A stretch of DNA of 64,000 nucleotides, from positions 49,414,001-49,478,000 of the forward strand of contig OX597826.1 of the NCBI GenBank assembly GCA_951406725.2. Reading direction: 5' to 3'. This document shows positions 9,069 to 62,842 of this stretch, one piece after another (within the stretch, counting starts at the first letter, position 1; every line of letters begins with the position of its first letter). The stretch is from Octopus vulgaris. Taxonomy: Eukaryota. A program made the translations under genes and the position numbers. The notes below the pieces were generated by a model. The model searched no databases and was not told the DNA's origin. It saw only the letters and a list, made by a program, of their open reading frames with translations.

Positions 9069-9189
9069 ATATATTTATATATATATATATATATATACAG
9101 AATATACATATAGTATATATATATATATATATGTCAAAAATTTTTTTTTTATTTGAAACCAAGGTATAACCGTAAAAAATAACAAGGTA

Positions 9190-9321
9190 AAAGTTTTTAT
9201 TTTTCATTCCCTTCGAAATTGCTCTTAAATGTGGTTTCGGTCGTTTTGACTGCTTCTTTTAGCATGTATAAGTACCTGTTAAAGGTACTTTTCTCTTGTG
9301 TTTAAATGTACACTATTTTAT

Positions 9322-9325
<4 letters not shown>
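9190..9325 (+). mobile_element. Diverged fragment of the ~487-bp HHR element family
   Basis: TTCCCTTCGAAATTGCTCTTA...CCTGTTAAAGG...TGTACACTATTTTATAT resembles 20200-20261 joined to 19777-19839; flanked by (TA)n. Confidence 0.6.
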
Positions 9326-10007: not shown

Positions 10008-10249
10008 GTTATATGCATAAGGGATCACACGCACTTGCATACACACATTATTTTTTTATTTTTATTAAAGAAACTAAAGTTAAACCGTTAATGTTGCCAA
10101 ATGTTCCAAGTCGTCAGAAACTCGTGGTATAAAGGGCATTTATTAACTAACAGGATATATGTGTAAGCCTTTATAATCCGGAATTACATGACAAATATGA
10201 TTGGTGCACAGAGAGAATATCATTGCTGAAATGAACGTGTGACATGCAC

Positions 10250-12110
10250 CCTCTTTGGTCTTTTCGGCACCGTCATTCATATCTGTCGGCACACCTCTTT
10301 GATCTCTGTCGGCACCCTCTTTGATCACTTTCGGCACGCTCGTTGATCTCTGTCGGCACGCTCTTTGATGTCTGTCGGCACGCTCTTTGATCTATGTCGG
10401 CACCCTCTTTGATCTCTTTCGGCACACCACTTTGATGTCTGTCTGCACACTCTTTGATCTCTGTCGGCACACCTCTTTGATCTCTATCGACACGCTCTTT
10501 GATCCCTGTCGGCACCCTCTTTGATCCCTGTCGGCACCCTCTTTGATCCCTGTCGGCACGCTCTTGATCTCTGTCGGCATACCTCTTTGATGTCTGTCGG
10601 CACGCTCTTTGATCTCTGTCGGCACACCTCTTTGATGTCTGTCGGCACGCTCTTTGATCTCTGTCGACACACCTCTTTGATGTTTGTCGGCACGCTCTTT
10701 GATCTCTGTCGACACGCTCTTTGATACCTGTCGGCACCCTCTTTGATCCCTGTCGGCACGCTCTTGATCTCTGTCGGCACACCTCTTTGATGTCTGTCGG
10801 TACGCTCTTTGATATCTGTCGGCACACCTCTTTGATCTCTGTCGGCACGCTCTTTGATCTCTGTTGGCACCCTCTTTGATCCCTGTCGGCACCCTCTTTG
10901 ATCCCTGTCGGCACGCTCTTTGATCTCTGTCGACACACCTCTTTGATGTCTGTCGGCACGCTCTTTGATCTCTGTCGACACGCTCTTTGATACCTGTCGG
11001 CACCCTCTTTGATCCCTGTCGGCACGCTCTTGATCTCTGTCGGCACACCTCTTTGATGTCTGTCGGTACGCTCTTTGATCTCTGTCGGCACACCTCTTTG
11101 ATCTCTGTCGGCACGCTCTTTGATCTCTGTTGGCACCCTCTTTGATCTCTGTCGGCACCCTCTTTGATTCCTGTCGGCACCCTCTTTGATCCCTGTCGAC
11201 ACACCTCTTTGATATCTGTCGGCACCCTCTTTGATCTCTTTCGGCACGCTCTTTGATCTCTGTCAACACGCTCTTTGATCTCTGTCGGCACCCTCTTTGA
11301 TCTCTTTCGGCACACCACTTTGATGTCTGTCGGCGCGCTCTTTGATCTCTGTCGGCACCCTCTTTGATCTCTGTCGGCACACCTCTTTGATCTCTGTCGA
11401 CACGCTCTTTGATCCCTGTCGGCACGCTCTTTGATCCCTGTCGGCACGCTCTTGATCTCTGTCGGCACACCTCTTTGATGTCTGTCGGCACGCTCTTTGA
11501 TCTCTGTCGGCACACCTCTTTGATGTCTGACGGCACGCTCTTTGATCTCTGTCGACACACCTCTTTGATGTCTGTCGGCACGCTCTTTGATCTCTGTCGG
11601 CACACCTCTTTGATCTCTGTCGGCACTCTCTTTGATCTCTGTCGGCACCCTCTTTGATCTCTGTCGACACCCTCTTTGATCTCTTTCGGCACGCTCTTTG
11701 ATCTCTGTCGGCACCCTCTTTGATCTCTTTCGGCATGCTCTTTGATCTCTATCGGCACCCTCTTTGATCTCTGTCGGCACCCTCTTTGATCTCTTTCGGC
11801 GGGCTTTTTGATCCATGTCGACACGCTCTTTGATCTCTGTCGGCGCGCTCTTTGATCTTTGTCGGCACGCTTTTTGATCTCTGTCGACACGCTCTTTGAT
11901 CTCTGTCGACACGCTCTTTGATCTCTTTCGGCATGCTCTTTGATCTCTGTCGACACGCTCTTTGATCTCTGTCGGCACCCTCTTTGATCTCTTTCGGCAC
12001 GCTCTTTGATCTCTGTCGGCACGCTCTTTGATCTCTGTCGGCACGCTCTTTGATCTCTGTCGGCACGCTTTTTGATCTCTGTCGGCACCCTCTTTGATCT
12101 ATTTCGGCAT
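10250..12110. repeat. Minisatellite, ~22-bp unit (20/22/24-bp variants), ~1.86 kb
   Basis: Consensus CTCTTTGATCTCTGTCGGCAC(G/C) repeated ~80 times; generates the spurious long minus-strand ORFs. Confidence 0.97.
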
Positions 12111-12334
12111 ACGATTGCTACATTACGATTAATCTGGGATTAAAGAATATGCAACAGAAAGTCTGTTGGTGTCTCTAAAAGCTCTAGTTCACTACATAGC
12201 GTAATATCAAAGCTCAACACGGCTTATGTTACATAGTCTCACAAACACAACACTCTAGTTCATTGCACTATGGCTATATCTCATCCTCGATCCTGCTATT
12301 TATCATTCCACGAACTTATTGAAGATAGACAGAG

Positions 12335-12758: not shown

Positions 12759-14056
12759 ATTTGGCTCAAAAGCAAATAGCAAGGCCATGTAGGGAGACAT
12801 GGAGTTAAGTACAGGGTGGTGTTCATGTAAAGAGTTCAGGCCACTTGAGGTCAAGGGAGGCTTTGAACAAAGCGGTCGTCGGCATCTTCACCATCTCGTC
12901 TGGCAGCTTGTTCCACGGATCCGCAACCCGGACGGAGAAAGCTCCTCTCCTTCGATTGAGATGAAATCGTCGCAGGTAGAGCTTTTCGGAATGACCCCGC
13001 AGCCGACGCTCTGGAGCAGGAGTGAAGAGCAGCTCTTTCGAGAGGTTACACTTTCCGCTTATGATGTTGTGGGCGAGAATGAGATCACCACGGCGGCGGC
13101 GTTTTTCAAGAGAATAAAGGTCGAGCGTCCTCAGCCTTTCTTCGTAGGACAAATTTTTGAGACCATGAATCATGCGGGTAGCCAGCCTCTGGACTCTTTC
13201 GAGATGCTGTATGTCTTTGAGGAGATAAGGAGAAGAGGCTTGAATCCCGTACTCCAATATGGGTCTCACCAGCGTGACATAGAGTGGTAGGAATATGGCT
13301 GCTGTGAGCATTCCGAATGACCGTCGAATCAAGAACAGAATTCCGCGTGCTTTGTTGGCAGCATGGACGCACTGGGCCGAAGGCGAAAAGGAGGAATCCA
13401 CCAAGATACCCAGGTCCTTTACCTGATCGGTCCTCTCCAGCAGCAGACGACCCGGCTCGAAATCAAGTTGAGTTGCAGGAGGAGAGCCAACAGGCAGATG
13501 ACAGCACTTTGACACGTTCAGACACAGGTCCCATTCGTTAGACCACTTCCAAATTTGGTGGAGGCATCGACGAAGATCCTCTATATCACCGCGAGGAGCG
13601 ACCAGTTTGATATCGTCGGCAAATAGAAGAGTGTGTTGCGTGAGGTCGTCGGGCAAGTCATTTATGAAGACTAAGAACAACAAGGGCCCAAGCACTGAAC
13701 CTTGAGGCACGCCACTGCTCGCACTGGAGACGTCGGAACGCGAACCATTAACTTGGACTTGGAAGGAGCGATCTGAGTGGAAGGCACCAACCTATCGTAC
13801 AATATCCGGATGGAAACTATATGCTTGAAGCTTGACAAGTAATAGGCGGTGGTTTACCGAGTCAAAAGCTTTGGCAAAGTCCAATAAAACGATGTCAACA
13901 GCATCACTATCATCGAGGATGCGCGTCACCAATTCTTCCATTACCAGTTAGTTGGTCAAGCATGATCTCTTCGGCACGAAGCCGTGTTGGGAATCAGAGA
14001 TAGAGGCTGTGTTTTGGAGGTGGAGCATCATACTTTTCTTAGGGATGGTTTCGAAC
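12724..14056 (-). mobile_element. 5'-truncated CR1-clade LINE (reverse transcriptase C-terminal half) with (TAAC)n tail
   Basis: SQHGFVPKRSCLTN*...LDFAKAFDSVNH...GVPQGSVLGPLLFLVFINDLP...LFADDIKL...LVRPILEY...LERVQRLATR...RRRRGDLI...FSVRVADPWNKLP; in-frame stops upstream of 13710; tail (GTTA)n on + at 12724-12758. Confidence 0.95.
12823..13710 (-). pseudogene. Open RT segment of the CR1 LINE (295 aa)
   Basis: ORF track; PQG and FADD RT motifs. Confidence 0.9.
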
Positions 14057-14737: not shown

Positions 14738-14950
14738 GTTAATCCACACAAGAAAGCACAAAAAACACAACAACGCGAGGACGTGGAACAAATATAGTAT
14801 TATTGAACGCTCAGAAAAGAAGGAAAGAAGGAGGGTTTAACGTTTCGAGCGGAGCTCTTCGTCGGAAACATAGAAGGAAACATAGAAGGAAAGATACAGA
14901 GAAGGGAAGACAGAGAAAAAAAGTCGCCAACGGTACACACGCTGTCGCAT
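14738..14950 (-). mobile_element. Short HHR-bearing PLE-type element (subfamily 2)
   Basis: HHR at 14835-14869: GTTT-CCGACGA-A-GAGC-TCC-GCTC-GAAA-CGTT-AAAC; similar to 15317-15535 and 62638-62842. Confidence 0.75.
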
Positions 14951-15120: not shown

Positions 15121-15594
<474 letters not shown>

Positions 15595-15969: not shown

Positions 15970-16848
<879 letters not shown>

Positions 16849-19456: not shown

Positions 19457-19511
19457 GTCCTCATGTTTCGTTTATTCAAATTTCTTTTTCAGCCAAAGTG
19501 AACCTAAAAGT

Positions 19512-19560
<49 letters not shown>

Positions 19561-19566
<6 letters not shown>

Positions 19567-20261
19567 TACAAATAATTTATGTATTTATACACAAAAGAGG
19601 TGACCTTTAACAGGACGTCTTACGTGCTGGAAAGAGTAGTTAAAGCCCAAACCACGAATAAGAGCAATTTCAAAGGGAATGAAAATAAAAATAATTTTTG
19701 TGGTTACCCTCAGGCTCAAGTTTCTGCATCAATGTGCAAGTAAATTCATTTGCCATCCGTACTTCTTCAGTGAGGTGTCCTGTTAAAAGGCACCTCTTTT
19801 GTGTATAAATACATAGATTGTTTGTACACTATTTTATATGAAAATATGCTGTCTATTGACTTCATTATGCATGCTGGCCACCGATATGAAAATTTCTCTA
19901 AATTTTTCACCGTTATTATTTTCACTGTAAAATGTTCGTAGTTTCGAAGTCCTTTGGTACGCAGTTTTAATTTTTTATATTATTACCATCTACTACCGAA
20001 TGTAACTGCGCTTGCGCAGTGGATTTGAAAATTATAATGCATAAATATGTAGCACATATATTTTCAGTGCTATTTGCTGCATAAATATGCATTAATTTTA
20101 GCGCCCTCACTGAAGAAGTACGGATGGCAAATTAATTTATTTGCACATTGATACAAGAACTTGAGCCTGGGGGTAACTACAAAAATTATTTTTATCTTTA
20201 TTCCCTTTGAAATTGCTCTTATTCGAGGTTTGGGCTTTAACTGCCCTTTCCAGTATGTAAG
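19561..20261. mobile_element. ~487-bp-unit HHR element: permuted inverted partial copy (-) plus one unit (+)
   Basis: 19561-19616 is the reverse complement of 19777-19832, and 19619-19775 is the reverse complement of 20105-20261; degenerate HHRs at 19708-19775 (-) and 20105-20172 (+): CCUCA-CUGAAGA...GAAA-CUUGAGCC-UGAGG. Confidence 0.8.
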
Positions 20262-22347
20262 GTGGGGTGGTAGTTGTTGTTGTTGGTGTTGTTGTTTGGG
20301 CTGAGTCAGTTCTGTTTCAACAGGCTCTCGATTGACGGTGTCCCAGCTTTGACCTTCCCATCTGTATTTTGTCAACCATAATACATCCTAAACTATGCAG
20401 TCAAATGTGTTCTTCATCTTTTAACACGGTATAATGTGATTTGTGGGAGATTTAGCAACTATTTCTAACAGAATGAGTGACAGTGTAGCGGCTCCATTAC
20501 TGTCACAAATTATTAAATGTTGATAGTGTTTATACTCAGATCATTCCAATCTTCTATTCATATGTGCTATATCCAGGACTACATTATCCAACACTGTTGG
20601 ATAAAAACACCTGGCTGCTTTGCTTTTGGTGTTCTGGATTCAAACTTCGCTGAGGTCAAATTCACGAGAAGGAAAGATAAAAAAAAGTACCGATCGACGA
20701 CAGCCGATAGACAGAATAGCCATGTTGTTTTTGTACCATTTTTTTGCATTTTAGGATCTTAGTTGGTAGACAATCTATCACCTGATGTGTTACCATCACC
20801 TGGCGATCCTAGGTTAACTTATAAGGACGTTCCACTCAGTTGCAAGGTTTCGTTTGCTGGCTCTGGCTTGGGGATAACTTTCCCCTCCTTCTTACGATCC
20901 GCAGAAGCCCTGAAAAAAATAAGGGATTCCGGGCACTTATACTTTTCTCCCCATTTTGAAGAACATCCCAAAACTAGGCAGAGTAACGTGCAGCCTCGGC
21001 ACCATCGCAATGAAGGAAACGTCCACTTCGAATCAGAAATCGTAATCTTTTAGCTTATCCAACACATGCTCTCCTTTCTCTTTCTCAATGTCTCATTTTT
21101 TATTTTCTTTACTCCTGTTTCAACCTTCCATTCGGCTTCTCCGCCTCTGTCTCTCTCTATATATCTCCCTTTTTGTTACTCTATGGTAGGGAAGGGAAGG
21201 GAAGGAGGGCAAAAGGGATCAGAAGACCGGAAGAGAGTAAATCAGTCCACCATATTTACATGATGTTACACAGAAGACGGAAATAAGAGACTCCCATTTA
21301 AAATGATTGTAGTTAATTATTTGATAGTTAAGCCGAATGTACAGATACACACATGCGCTCATATACATGCACTATGCGTATATGAATACACACACACATA
21401 CATTCATACACACACACACACATACATACATACATACATACATACATACATACATACATACATACATACATACATACATACATACAAACATTCATACATA
21501 CCTCCGTTCACATACATATATATATATATGCGTATATACATAGATAATTGCATACACACGTACATATATACATGCACACATAAACATGCATACTTACATA
21601 AACACATAAATACTTACATACATACACATGCACACACACACATATACATACTCACATATATACATGCATACATATATACATACACATAGATAAGTACACA
21701 CGCTTAAACAATACGTATATTTATCTACACATACAAATTTCCATTAAAAAGTTATATCTCCGCACGCACAGACACGCGCACACACACACAAACACACACA
21801 TACGCACTCTTAGACACATGCACATTCTTACAAATACACACATATATATACACGCACAATTGCAGCTGTCTATCAACATAGACAACACTCGAGAACATCA
21901 GAGAGAAATTTGCAGTCAATAGACAGAGAGAGAGAAAGAGTGGGCGGCAAGAGAAGAGAGAGGAGGAAGGGAGAGACAGAAAGAAAGAAAGAAAGAATAG
22001 AAAGCCAGTACGGTCAAAAAGCAAGAAAGCAAAAACCCATGTATGTGTGGGGATGGGTGGGGTTAGTATGTGTGCATCAGGTTTATAATGTGTGTGTGTG
22101 TATGTGTATGTATGCGAGCATGGGCGTGTATGTGTGTGGGTGTATGTCCGGATGCGTATGTGAGTGTGTACAGATAATAACAGAGACCAGAAATTATGGT
22201 TCATATATTCATGAAATTATATACATAGTTACCTGTCTATTCAGGTGCATGTATGCAGTATTTATGTGCATACAAATCTGTCTATGTATGCGCCTGTTGA
22301 AATATATCTGCATATATATATATATATATATATATACATACATATAT

Positions 22348-25898: not shown

Positions 25899-26070
25899 AT
25901 ATATAGAAAATAGTAAAGAGTGAAAAAACTACAGAAGGCTTAAATGTTAAAAAATATATATATTTGCGTCAATATGTCTGAAGAATATTAGACATATTGA
26001 CGCAAATATATATATTTTTTAACATTTAAGCCGTCTGTAGTTTTTTCACTCTTTACTATTTTCTATATAT
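25899..26070. repeat. Fold-back palindrome, ~80-bp arms, 10-nt loop
   Basis: 25899-25979 vs 25990-26070, one visible mismatch; right end runs into (TA)n. Confidence 0.92.
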
Positions 26071-28186: not shown

Positions 28187-28381
28187 ATATAAAACTTATA
28201 TATAAAATGTACAAAAGGGGACAAGAACGCAAACTACACAAAGAGACGACACAAAAAAAAAAACAGACAGGTCATTGGAAGCCTCTAATCTTCGAATGAC
28301 CTGTCTGTTTTTTTGTGTCGTCTCTTTGTGTAGTTTGCGTTCTTGTCCCCTTTTGTACATTTTATATATATAAGTTTTATA
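28187..28381. repeat. Fold-back palindrome, ~93-bp arms, 8-nt loop
   Basis: 28187-28281 vs 28290-28381; differences limited to homopolymer/TA length and one substitution; left end in (TA)n. Confidence 0.92.
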
Positions 28382-37019: not shown

Positions 37020-38806
37020 TCTCTTTCTCTCTCGCTCATATGTGAAACTTCGTCGTCTGAATAACAACTTGGATATTCTTTGTTGTTGTTGTTTTTGCCC
37101 AAGTGTAGCCCTAAACGCGCAAATCTATGACCAGCTGCTTTACTCTACGCAGTTTTGCAGTCTGCTAGAAATAGCAGTAAAATCTCCCTAAGGCCACTCC
37201 CTGCCTTATTAAATAGGCAAAAGCTCAACAGTCTTTGATTCATAATCCGAAAACAAAGTTATACTGACCATTGAAACAATTGTAGATCTGTTTGATCATT
37301 GCTGACCTGGGGCTAAACAAGAACAACAAACACCACTATAAATACTAAAGAAATTGTAAGCTAATGAAGGACATGCCATTTCAAAGTGAGAATAACGATT
37401 TTAAAATGAAAACATGCTCCTTTAAAGTGCAAAAACTTATTCCAAAGTGGGGTTATGTCACCTTAAAATGAGTCTAGCTATTTTAAAACGAAGTCATGAA
37501 TTTAAAAAATTTAAGGCGGCCAGTTGGCAGAAACACTAACATGCCGGACAAAACGTTTAGCGGCGTTTCGTCCGTTTTTACGCTCTGGGTTCAAATTCCG
37601 CCGGTGTCGACTTTGCCTTTTCTCCTTTCAGGGCCGATAAAATAAAGACCAGTTGAGCTCTGGGGTCGATGTAATTGACTTAGCCCCTCCTCAGAAATTG
37701 CTAGCTTTGTGCCAAAATTTGAAATCAAAGTGATGTAATTATGTCACTGGTCAAGAATACAAAAATTTATCTTCACTTTGGGAAGTGTAGCAGGGAAGAC
37801 TTTATAAATTGGAAAATATAATCATCAACCCCTGGACATTATGTCTTGGTCCTGAGACTCATAGGGCTGATTACCAGGTTTCCATAGCGTATAAGGGGCC
37901 AAGATCACAACATTCTGTTAGCTTGCTTTCTTCGTTTCAACACGTTGTGTATTTATAGCGAAAAATATTGTATATGGTCAGACGATCTAAAGTCTATATT
38001 TCAGCATATTGGCATAGAAAATTGTTTTCTTTTGCCCTTATTTTATAATTGTTTATAATTTTCACCTTAAAAGATATTTTAGTATGCTGGCCACTGATAA
38101 AATTCTTTTTTGAAAAATTTTATCCCTATATTGGAAGTGTATATATATATATATAAATAGAAATTCCTTCGTACAGTACTATATTTCTGAAAAAATGAAT
38201 TTTTCTGATAATTTTTCCACTTCAATAATTAGATGTTCATAAGTTATTAGGTGCTATTAAAGTGGAAAAATTATCAGAAAAGCCATTTCTAATCAACTAA
38301 TTATAAATCTCTGGGCGAGAAAACTGTAGTAACAGTACCGTACAATGGTCTTTTTGCCCCATTATAGCAAAGAAGAATGCGATGACCAAAGATATGGTCG
38401 TGTTCTCTCCTGCATCAACTGAAGCATGAACGATACATAAAAACCCATCAAAACGAAATCAAAGCAAGAACCAGGGCTTGAACTCGTAACGGCTGTTTCT
38501 ATGATTACGATGCTTACAAAACTTTCCTGAGCGAGCTGTTTACGTCTGGCGCGTATTAATTATGTATTCCATTATCTTTTAAGACTATTTATAAATCAAG
38601 AAATACAATCACCACAACATCTTATCATAGAAGTACCCGTTGACATCTTCGAGAATTTTTTGTTTTTATTTTTCATACGTACCCGGAGAGACCTAGATAT
38701 ACGCATTCATCCACGCACACACAAGCGCACGCACATACACACATTTACAGATATATATTTATACATAGACATTTATATATATATGCATCTCTCTCTAACA
38801 CACACA

Positions 38807-43487: not shown

Positions 43488-43783
43488 AATAATAAAAGGG
43501 TAAAATTAATTAATTATTAATTAATAATTTTACCAAGTAGCGTTCAGTATGTAAAAAGACCATTTACGGTATATTTAAAACATTACATTATATAATTAGG
43601 GTTCAGTAAAAAAATTTTTCGTTATTTTTCCCTCTATACCTGCATGAATTATTTTTGAGTATACATTGTCTGGGAGACTTTTCTTATAGTAGAGGAAATA
43701 GCTAAAATTTTGGGGCTGCTATTTCTAAAAGTTCGGTGTGTGGTAAAGAAAATTTTTTTTACTGAACCCTAATTATATAACGT

Positions 43784-43791
<8 letters not shown>
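43488..43791. mobile_element. Truncated inverted-pair element of the HHR-unit family (no HHR retained), in (TA)n
   Basis: Inverted arms 43577-43620 / 43748-43791; family 3' hairpin at 43499-43534. Confidence 0.65.
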
Positions 43792-43842
<51 letters not shown>

Positions 43843-44155
43843 ACAAGGCATTGGTCAGCCGGAGGCTATGGTAGAAGACACTTGACCAAGGTGCCAAAAG
43901 TGGGACTGAACCCAGTACCATGTGGTTGGTAAGCAAGCTACTTATCACACAGCCACTAGCTGCTAACAGTTTCATGCACTGCAACCTGAAGATTGCCTGA
44001 AGAAGACAAGGGCATTAAGCGTAAAAGGGTATATTAAAAAAAACATACAAATTTAATACTTGATATCTGAAATCATATATATGTGTCTATGCGTGTTGGT
44101 GTGTGTGTATGTATGTATGTATCAGTATGCACATAGATATATGCATTATATATAT

Positions 44156-44619
44156 ATTGTTAGAAAGGATCACAAAAATACAGCATCCAAAATTACTGCA
44201 GAGCTTAATGACCACTTCGAGAACCCAGTCTCCACAAAAACTGTTCGCTGGGAGCTGCACGAAGCCGGGTTTCACAGAAGGGCTGCAGAAGCTGTTACTG
44301 AATGGCACGAAGAACATTCTCGTGAAGTTGAATAACTTATCTAGTCTCCACAGTCCACAGATATCAATATTATTGAAAATTTATGGTGCATTTTAGAAAT
44401 ACAAGGAGTCGATATCCTCCACCATCATCACAACAAGAACTGAAGGCTGTTTTAGCTGAAGAATGGACAAAAAATTCCTTTGGAAACAATTCAAAACTTT
44501 GTATGAGTCCATATCTTGTAGTATTCCAGCTGTCATTACTGCCAAAGGCGATCCTACCTCGTATTAAAATTAATTTGTTTGAAATTTTAAGATGTTTCCA
44601 TTAATTTGTTCAATCACTG
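44156..44619 (+). mobile_element. Internally deleted Tc1 transposon remnant
   Basis: IVRKDHKNTASKITAELNDHFENPVSTKTVRWELHEAGFHRRAA // SPQSTDINIIENLW...ELKAVLAEEWTK...AVITAKG; ends CACTG-TA. Confidence 0.85.
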
Positions 44620-45011: not shown

Positions 45012-45269
45012 TATATATTAGAAAAATTGAGGTAATCAGATCAGATGGTTCATATTTGTAGATATTTATTTATATATTACATTTTTTACATATATATCAT
45101 ATCATTCGGATTAGCGCTTGCTCCCATTCTAGTGGGTTTTCAAATCCCACTAGAATGGGAGCAAGCGCTAATCGAATGATATGATATATATGTAAAAAAT
45201 GTAATATATAAATAAATATCTACAAATATGAACCATCTGATCTGATTACCTCAATTTTTCTAATATATA
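45012..45269. repeat. Fold-back palindrome, ~125-bp arms, in (TA)n
   Basis: 45012-45136 vs 45146-45269, one 1-nt indel visible. Confidence 0.93.
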
Positions 45270-45296: not shown

Positions 45297-45344
<48 letters not shown>

Positions 45345-45625
45345 TTAATAAGGGTGAGAGAATTAGATACTAATTTAATAGTATGTCCATTCAACACCAA
45401 GTGGCCCAGTGCCTCGAGAAACCTGGATTATTATAATATTTTATAATATATTATAATATTATTTTATACAAAAATAAATATAAGAGAATGGTCACTATGT
45501 GGCTCATTCTAGCACTAGAAAATCCAAAAGGTTTCAACCACAAAAATACATGTTTCACATGAAAGCCAGTACGATTGTTAGCTCACACGAACAGGGCAAA
45601 TAAAAAATAACAAAAATACAGATTA

Positions 45626-45706
45626 TTTTGGGACAATTGTTTCGCTATTAATGAATTAAATGCAATTTTACTTACAAAAAACCCACTTGTAGCTCCTCAG
45701 CCAAAA
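45626..45706 (-). ncRNA. Type I hammerhead ribozyme
   Basis: Reverse complement of 46252-46332. Confidence 0.88.
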
Positions 45707-46251
45707 CTATCTGGATGAAATCCACTCAATCACACGCCAGATTTTACCATAACGATAAATACACGTGTGGTTCAATTGATTACATCCGACGTTATAATTA
45801 AAATGCCCCTACTAACAGCGCGCCAAACTTTCACGGAAACAAATACTACATTTAGAAATAAATGTAGCATGTATTTTTGTGGTTGAAACCTTTTGGATTT
45901 TCTAGTGCTAGAATGAGCCACATAGTGACCATTCTCTTATATTTATTTTTGTATAAAATAATATTATAATATATTATAAAATATTATAATAATCCAGGTT
46001 TCTCGAGGCACTGGGCCACTTGGTGTTGAATGGACATACTATTAAATTAGTATCTAATTCTCTCACCCTTATTAATTAATTATAATTATGCTACATTTAT
46101 TTCTAAATGTAGTATTTGTTTCCGTGAAAGTTTGGCGCGCTGTTAGTAGGGGCATTTGAATTATAACGTCGGATGTAATCAATTGAACCACACGTGTATT
46201 TATCGTTATGGTAAAATCTGGCATGTGATTGAGTGGATTTCATCCAGATAG

Positions 46252-46332
46252 TTTTGGCTGAGGAGCTACAAGTGGGTTTTTTGTAAGTAAAATTGCATTT
46301 AATTCATTAATAGCGAAACAATTGTCCCAAAA
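46252..46332 (+). ncRNA. Type I hammerhead ribozyme, canonical core, predicted cut after C46326
   Basis: UUUUGG-CUGAGGA-GCUA...(42 nt)...UAGC-GAAA-CAAUU-GUC-CCAAAA; palindromic stem III ACAAUUGU. Confidence 0.9.
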
Positions 46333-46789
46333 TAATCTGTATTTTTGTTATTTTTTATTTGCCCTGTTCGTGTGAGCTAACAATCGTACTGGCTTTCATG
46401 TGAAACATGTATTTTTGTGGTTGAAACCTTTTGGATTTTCTAGTGCTAGAATGAGCCACATAGTGACCATTCTCTTATATTTATTTTTGTATAAAATAAT
46501 ATTATAATATATTATAAAATATTATAATAATCCAGGTTTCTCGAGGCACTGGGCCACTTGGTGTTGAATGGACATACTATTAAATTAGTATCTAATTCTC
46601 TCACCCTTATTAATTAATTATAATTATGCTACATTTATTTCTAAATGTAGTATTTGTTTCCGTGAAAGTTTGGCGCGCTGTTAGTAGGGGCATTTGAATT
46701 ATAACGTCGGATGTAATCAATTGAACCACACGTGTATTTATCGTTATGGTAAAATCTGGCATGTGATTGAGTGGATTTCATCCAGATAG

Positions 46790-46870
46790 TTTTGGCTGAG
46801 GAGCTACAAGTGGGTTTTTTGTAAGTAAAATTGCATTTAATTCATTAATAGCGAAACAATTGTCCCAAAA
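46790..46870 (+). ncRNA. Type I hammerhead ribozyme, predicted cut after C46864
   Basis: Identical to 46252-46332, 538 nt downstream. Confidence 0.9.
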
Positions 46871-47051
46871 TAATCTGTATTTTTGTTATTTTTTATTTGC
46901 CCTGTTCGTGTGAGCTAACAATCGTACTGGCTTTCATGTGAAACATGTATTTTTGTGGTTGAAACCTTTTGGATTTTCTAGTGCTAGAATGAGCCACATA
47001 GTGACCATTCTCTTATATTTATTATTTTATTTTTATATATATATATATATA

Positions 47052-62637: not shown

Positions 62638-62842
62638 ACCGCGTATGTATCGTTGGCGATTTTCTTTCTCCGTCTTCCCTTCCTTGGACCTTTCCCTTTT
62701 TATGTTTCTGACGAAGAGCTCCGCTCGGAATGTTAAATCCTCCTTCTTTCTTTCCTTTCCTGAGCGTCCAATAACACTATACTTGTTCCACGTCCTCGTG
62801 TTGTTGTGTTTTCTCTTCGTGTTTTCATGTTTGGATTAACTA
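62638..62842 (+). mobile_element. Short HHR-bearing PLE-type element (subfamily 2)
   Basis: GTTT-CTGACGA-A-GAGC-TCC-GCTC-GGAA-TGTT-AAAT at 62704-62738 (canonical CUGANGA, decayed GAAA and stem III). Confidence 0.7.

Follow-up and report, generated by a model that had tools for sequence, protein, structure and literature searches.

How did a short repeat unit come to lie, at positions 19561-20261 of the 64,000-nt stretch of Octopus vulgaris DNA analysed here (the window), as two head-to-head copies that begin and end at different points of the same unit, and what kind of template would have produced them? The forward arm (19777-20261, plus strand) is 485 nt long and reads A-middle-B, with A at 19777-19832, a middle part of 272 nt, and B at 20105-20261. 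A matches the minus strand of 19561-19616 and B that of 19619-19775, and the homology between the arms ends sharply at each of these boundaries. The inverted arm, read on the minus strand from 19775 to 19561, consists of B (157 nt; the 5' part B', 19619-19775, with 14/157 differences from forward B), 2 nt that link B to A and close the unit (19617-19618), and A (56 nt; the 3' end or "tail" A', 19561-19616, with 4/56 differences from forward A), 215 nt in all, and then runs into (TA)n. The two arms are separated by a single base (19776), with no microhomology. An earlier note on this DNA had given the A and B coordinates, which the arm comparison reproduces to the base; it had also described a unit of ~487 nt, which is what the arms give (485+2 = 487 nt), and an inverted copy that reads B into A, as is seen on the minus strand with the 2 nt in between. 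The middle part is present in the forward arm and absent from the inverted arm, and the B-to-A join is present in the inverted arm and absent from the forward arm.

Measured from the predicted hammerhead cut site, the forward arm is permuted, starting 97 nt and ending 94 nt downstream of it (+97 round to +94), and the inverted arm runs from 63 nt upstream, at the start of B', to 152 nt downstream, at the end of A' (-63 to +152). The unit has a GC content of 0.33 and contains no ORF, the longest Met-ORF on either strand being 41 aa. On the left the composite is bordered by a (TA)n microsatellite (19510-19560), the presumed target, in which all 30 flanking bases are TA repeat; the right flank (20262-20295) is a G/T-rich simple repeat and not (TA)n. 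Since the right end at 20261 is without (TA)n, it may reflect breakage after insertion and not a site of priming. Comparison of 121 nt of left flank with 119 nt of right flank revealed no target-site duplication, only a single common 6-mer. An imperfect hairpin (20028-20099; self-match of 70% over 74 columns, E 0.037) occupies the part of the middle that immediately precedes the hammerhead. Beside stem I, 3 nt upstream of B, there is a T-rich stretch with AG at its end (20096-20104), possibly due to chance; in Drosophila Penelope the 3' end of an intron lies at helix I (PMC4209133).

The join is not peculiar to this locus. A diverged solo fragment of the same family (9194-9323, plus strand) extends across it and ends in (TA)n ~159 nt after the cut site. 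By BLAST, 19583-19691 aligns with 9307-9194 at 75% over 114 columns (E 1e-14), collinearly across the join; the earlier note had seen the same junction at 9190-9325, of which 9194-9323 is the convincing part. When the B half and the A half of this fragment were each compared with the inverted arm, none of 1000 doublet shuffles scored as high. The A half is the weaker (score 36 vs a shuffle maximum of 33), and against forward A plus 15 nt it was equalled by 2/1000 shuffles. A possible 3' half of a hammerhead at 9134-9193 was rejected, the signal being weak (13/500 and 25/500 shuffles) and the alignment not convincing. Solo monomers are a recognised class of retrozyme derivatives (bioRxiv 10.64898/2026.07.22.740005).

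The join is also found in a related family, in a head-to-head composite at 16121-16786. Its minus arm (16626-16121) is 506 nt long, i.e., a 489-nt unit plus 17, with a hammerhead at 16442 (minus strand), and its plus arm (16627-16786) is 160 nt long and ends inside the AT-rich loop of stem II. The match to the inverted arm at 19.6 kb (127/184 identity, 0/1000 shuffles, nhmmer E 3e-4) runs from the ribozyme across the join. The join is thus found at three loci in the window (9.2, 16 and 19.6 kb), and the finding that would have spoken against the permutation in the earlier note, namely its absence from other copies, did not materialise within this window. No further convincing copies in the 64,000-nt window were detected by nhmmer, whether the query was a four-sequence profile or a single unit, and prokaryotic genomes scanned for exact 25-nt matches yielded 0.

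A third composite (45336-47022) is built on a 538-nt unit with no detectable sequence relation to the others; homology to the other families was considered and rejected as not significant (88, 531, 99 and 876 of 1000 shuffles). The minus arm (45870-45336) covers 535 nt of the unit, and the plus arm (45868-47022) covers 2.15 units. The composite as a whole carries three intact-looking type I hammerheads with a perfect 8-nt palindromic helix III. The arms share 3 nt of microhomology where they meet, and the minus arm begins, at its 5' end, with a short hairpin. All three composites in the window are head-to-head, with an inverted 5'-truncated copy directly adjoining the 5' end. (TA)n lies on both sides at 9, 16 and 45 kb, and on the left only at 19.6 kb. 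Five fold-back hairpins (45012-45269, 25899-26070, 28188-28381, 43576-43792 and 38201-38281) may represent head-to-head insertions of other families in which both arms were truncated; four of the five adjoin (TA)n of at least 13 nt on one side or both, and the one at 25.9 kb has CUGAAGA in its loop.

The hammerhead of the inverted arm (19708-19775, minus strand) comprises a 5-bp stem I, CUGAAGA, a long stem II, GAAA and a GCC triplet, with an unpaired A on each side of stem II and a 2-nt helix III closed by a non-palindromic loop. It matches a relaxed type I descriptor and fails the strict one. Among 38 CUGANGA sites in the window, the strict descriptor keeps 3, all at 45 kb, and the relaxed descriptor keeps 5 (the three at 45 kb, 16442(-) and 19770(-)), all of which fall inside the three composites. 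Relaxed matches average 0.05 in the shuffled window (40 shuffles of 44,198 unmasked bases) and occur in 1/5000 shuffles of the inverted arm, figures that are somewhat generous because the descriptor was loosened to admit this very motif. The forward copy (20103-20174, plus strand) has a 7-bp stem I and the same core defects, has also lost the GAAA box through differences at 20156-20157, and folds with a z of -3.7 (0/200 shuffles). Taken together, these results support the motif as a real, damaged type I hammerhead. Rfam gave no hammerhead match on 19561-20261 at E up to 10; it also missed the intact-looking motif at 46258 when run on 46100-46460, where stem II is likewise long, so the negative result at 19.6 kb is uninformative. 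A whole-window Rfam run was swamped by microsatellites, with no hammerhead among the matches listed (150 of 384).

Both arms depart from the consensus in having C instead of U at 16.1, an extra A before G12 and a loop III that is not a palindrome, and an A-A apposition stands at the base of stem II in both. The core defects were therefore probably in place before insertion, in the template RNA, as the same non-CpG change occurring twice is unlikely at ~4% per arm; gene conversion between the arms is an alternative source. The two arms agree on the non-palindromic form, and the alignment of the 9.2 kb fragment does not extend convincingly to helix III, so that a reversion of helix III to a palindrome, the check proposed in the earlier note, is not seen among these copies. 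The hammerhead quoted in the earlier note is that of the inverted arm, the GAAA box being lost from the forward copy, and its description as decayed is only partly right, because the core defects probably predate insertion. Its placement of the start of B exactly at stem I was mistaken: the forward stem extends to 7 bp from 20103, and B begins 2 nt inside it; none of the other five arm starts in the window is at stem I either.

In the relative at 16 kb, too, stem II is flanked by an extra purine on each side, with a G-G apposition at its base, and helix III is longer and near-palindromic. The extra purines may be a family trait, and the family at 16 and 19 kb may have a variant hammerhead in which purine faces purine at the foot of stem II. 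Motifs with defects like those common to the two arms at 19.6 kb were discarded in a large survey as non-functional (PMC3088659), although an NHH rule has been described for the hammerhead (PMC3884650). Three further CUGANGA sites with GAAA-like boxes, at 62708 (+), 51207 (+) and 43296 (-), resemble minimal PLE hammerheads by eye and failed the descriptors; the region of the first, 62646-62798, has relatives at 14776-14937 and 15357-15480. Conserved structure after the ribozyme was considered and rejected, as a consensus fold of three sequences gave a positive covariation term with double changes in only 3/23 pairs.

The insertions appear to differ in age. The arms at 19.6 kb differ at 18/213 sites (8.5%; 15 transitions and 3 transversions, JC 0.09 +/- 0.02), those at 16 kb at 3/160 (1.9%), and those at 45 kb at 2/535 (0.4%), where the tandem copies show 0/617 differences and the insertion is very young; identity over 617 nt is possibly an assembly effect. 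The greater divergence at 19.6 kb than at 45 kb, claimed in the earlier note, is significant (Fisher P 9e-9). Differently aged insertions thus coexist, in keeping with its suggestion of long-lasting activity, but not with the activity of one system, as there are at least two families and the one at 45 kb is not detectably related. As a clock, arm divergence is only rough, and the two arms at 19.6 kb may possibly derive from two different source RNAs. When the changes were polarised with the 9.2 kb copy, 7/9 fell on the forward arm (P 0.18), namely 5/7 of those within 20189-20261 and two in A; seven upstream sites were dropped because the alignment there is unreliable.

What can be said of the template follows from the contents of the arms. 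The inverted arm contains the join, and the two arms each continue across the predicted cut site; hence the template exceeded one unit in length and was intact at that site. To this extent the earlier proposal of a circular or multimeric template holds. By itself the join does not show a circle, since a linear partial-tandem transcript has it as well.

More specific to topology is the length of the arms. In each of the three composites one arm is close to one unit (485/487, 535/538 and 506/489), the second figure including the 3-nt microhomology and a few ambiguous AT bases. The minus arm at 45 kb runs from +300 round to +296, and its plus arm ends at +158; the minus arm at 16 kb runs from ~+222 round to +238, facing the plus arm of 160 nt. 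As cDNAs, the three one-lap arms would start at +94, +296 and +238, which are unrelated, and stop at +97, +300 and ~+222. Because the starts are unrelated and the lengths are nearly one unit, each stop tracks the start of its arm rather than one fixed position. In a simulated null, an element has an arm within 17 nt of a whole unit with probability 0.12-0.14, and all three composites do so with P 0.0017-0.0028 under four length distributions, this being a simple model conditioned on the unit being readable, with the tolerance set from the data, and a post hoc test with n=3 in which only 3/6 arms fit (the others measure 0.44, 0.33 and 2.15 units). The one-lap arms favour a circular template. 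In such a reading, a PLE enzyme would prime at a variable point on the retrozyme circle, go round once and tend to stall on its own anchored cDNA, and the product would be a permuted one-unit arm joined head-to-head to a second cDNA. We give a circle, or an end-to-end jump on a monomer with the same product, slightly less than an even chance. The fuller proposal, that the insertions preserve in the genome, as fossils, the product of a PLE enzyme that reverse-transcribed circular ribozyme RNA for one lap, is offered more tentatively.

The strongest rival, which we likewise hold to be possible but short of probable, dispenses with the circle. An uncleaved linear tandem, i.e., a read-through B-A-middle-B transcript, would be copied from two internal starts, the near-unit arms being due to chance or to template switching between repeats. 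Partial tandems are the normal state of PLEs (PMC2377424), PLE RNAs with a mutated ribozyme still insert as usual, the substrate in vitro being mainly unprocessed RNA (PMC11167929), and only 1/9 Xenopus retrozyme dimers was cleaved in vitro (bioRxiv 10.64898/2026.07.22.740005). The defects shared by the arms fit here, since they probably predate insertion, and they are awkward for a circle made by that ribozyme. Against a linear template stand the three coincidences of length that it needs (P about 0.002) and the stop offsets, of which a fixed roadblock would give one where three are observed. A circle is thus the simplest account of the one-lap arms, and an uncleaved linear tandem is the simplest account of the dead ribozyme.

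That a single linear RNA was copied by L1-style twin priming and the interior was inverted afterwards appears improbable. The signature of twin priming is that the 3' end of one arm abuts the 5' start of the other. Flipping the segment between the B copies does give A-middle-B-A facing B, with this signature, and to judge from the offsets the two forms, flipped and one-lap, are equivalent in geometry for all three composites; however, all three stand in the one-lap form, and the very young composite at 45 kb leaves little time for an inversion. We think it very unlikely that the structure arose at the DNA level, as a MITE or other fold-back DNA element or as a local inverted duplication, or that it is a mis-assembly. 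Its outline does combine inverted repeats with a TA context, and PLE structures are known to trouble assemblies (PMC8557442), but the outer ends of the composite do not match each other, so the inverted repeats are not terminal, the arms are 8.5% different and hence not collapsed reads, and the join recurs at two other loci while hammerhead motifs coincide with all three composites; a MITE or fold-back transposon was rejected on its unmatched ends and lack of a fixed target duplication. The least likely explanation, with hardly any weight left to it, is fold-back self-priming, in which the first cDNA would serve as template for the inverted arm, a route suggested for Penelope elements of rotifers (PMC3846280). 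It would suit the composites at 16 and 45 kb, in both of which one arm lies within the other, and also the near-perfect hairpins at other places in the window. Neither arm at 19.6 kb is contained in the other, however, each having what its partner lacks, so simple fold-back copying is excluded there unless the right end was later deleted.

Whatever the topology, the composite at 19.6 kb is very probably a non-autonomous, ORF-less 487-nt hammerhead retroelement that was inserted in trans by a Penelope-like (PLE) reverse transcriptase (RT)-endonuclease; as to its class, it could be either a non-LTR retrozyme or a derivative of a PLE pseudo-LTR. The enzyme would have cut at the edge of the (TA)n run, and both DNA ends would have primed internally on the element RNA, at points 152 nt and 94 nt downstream of where the ribozyme cuts. 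Synthesis would have ended after 215 nt in the first cDNA and after one lap of the unit in the second, and the 3' ends of the two cDNAs would then have been joined head-to-head; the element RNA would have been longer than one unit and uncut at the ribozyme. A PLE protein from Anolis cleaves and extends both strands, is predicted to form a dimer, and makes internal starts at two sites that define the tail, with ribozyme cleavage dispensable (PMC11167929). It starts at ORF position 111-118, with the cut at 26 (PMC11167929), which by our arithmetic is 85-92 nt past the cut, as against 94 at 19.6 kb.

The known insertions of PLEs have much the same anatomy, namely a partial tandem, an adjoining inverted 5'-truncated copy, a tail and a bias to (TA)n without discernible duplications (PMC8557442, PMC3846280). 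Pseudo-LTR hammerheads, opposite-strand pairs 100-700 bp apart and a circular-RNA template hypothesis for more-than-unit copying have also been described (PMC4209133). Like EN+ PLEs with pseudo-LTRs (Penelope/Poseidon, Neptune, Naiad), in which the tail is optional and the repeat carries a hammerhead (lacking in Naiads), the 19.6 kb element has an inverted 5'-truncated copy at its 5' end and a more-than-unit partial tandem. (TA)n is present on the left flank and absent from the right, and some adjacency is expected where ~31% of the window is simple repeat. Unlike those PLEs, the element has no RT or GIY-YIG ORF, and its forward arm is one bare unit without an upstream direct pseudo-LTR; the tail is 58-65 nt in this family vs 30-40 in published PLEs, with the extension at one end only. 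The ribozyme resembles the PLE hammerhead variants of PMC4209133 in its long helix II, extra base after position 9 and very short helix III, and differs from them in the extra unpaired purine before G12 (also present at 16 kb), C at 16.1 and the non-palindromic loop III. Non-autonomous Chlamys elements such as MRC1 are comparable as PLE derivatives that form pseudo-LTRs and head-to-tail insertions (PMC8557442), but they are algal, mostly without hammerheads, and have other microsatellite targets.

Metazoan non-LTR retrozymes are the other point of comparison. They share with the present element a short ORF-less unit (487 nt, within the reported 51-972 bp), a GC content below 50% (here 33%) and, probably, a type I hammerhead; they occur as monomer or dimer copies, and a circRNA template and a PLE helper have been proposed for them. 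ORF-less hammerhead repeats are expressed as circles (PMC7229834, PMC7761336), and a derivation of retrozymes from PLEs has been argued (bioRxiv 10.64898/2026.07.22.740005). The pair at 19.6 kb is head-to-head, not a head-to-tail array, and its ribozyme core is defective. The type I motif in its inverted arm is recognised, above chance, by the relaxed descriptor and not by the strict one or Rfam. At least two tandem units with complete hammerheads are found only at 45 kb, where the strict descriptor also matches. The element therefore fits the definition neither of an active retrozyme nor of an autonomous PLE; by analogy, it appears to work like a PLE insertion of a retrozyme-type unit. The locus is largely explained by known PLE and retrozyme biology. 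No report of unit-length permuted arms or of a head-to-head retrozyme insertion was found in the main texts consulted, among which there were few subscription papers; the word "inverted" is absent from PMC7229834, and PMC13282606 mentions neither "ribozyme" nor "retrozyme".

How PLEs build tandem and inverted repeats has been called unresolved (PMC8557442, PMC2377424), and the circular-template model rests on the abundance of circRNAs and not on insertion products (PMC4209133, PMC7229834, PMC7761336). The link between retrozymes and PLEs has so far been one of co-occurrence and phylogeny (bioRxiv 10.64898/2026.07.22.740005), to which ORF-less hammerhead units with PLE-type footprints lend mechanical support. 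The one-lap arm offers a cheap genome-wide statistic for distinguishing circular from linear templates from genome sequence alone. If the one-lap reading is true, arm length would reveal from DNA alone the circRNA intermediate that has long been proposed for both retrozymes and PLEs, and would be a direct trace of the mobilisation of retrozymes by PLEs. The 19.6 kb locus is the informative one, since fold-back copying is excluded there. If the statistic fails, the locus is an ordinary decayed PLE-type insertion.

The surrounding window is AT-rich (GC 0.357) and rich in short dispersed repeats, and 19,802 of its 64,000 bases were masked as simple repeat, an unmasked self-BLAST being swamped by microsatellites. 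A scan of 87 of its 196 ORFs detected no PLE ORF (RT or GIY-YIG). The only RT match is a LINE 3' fragment at 12826-13791 (minus strand; 322 aa open, Pfam RVT_1 E 5e-14), which from its motifs looks CR1-type and not of PLE type. Coding in a stop-free antisense frame across B was rejected, as there is no third-position bias by eye relative to the 9.2 kb copy and no Pfam match in two frames. A decayed Tc1/mariner transposase fragment lies at 44057-44570 (HTH_Tnp_Tc3_2 E 3e-7 in 44057-44332), and a pyrimidine-rich minisatellite at 10246-12112, with a period in multiples of ~22 nt, has long stop-free frames on the minus strand. Two abundant families of dispersed SINE-like repeats of ~150-180 nt are represented by 49-204 plus ~12 other places and by 1840-2023 plus ~10 other places, and an inverted pair at 44-442 consists of two copies of the first of these families.
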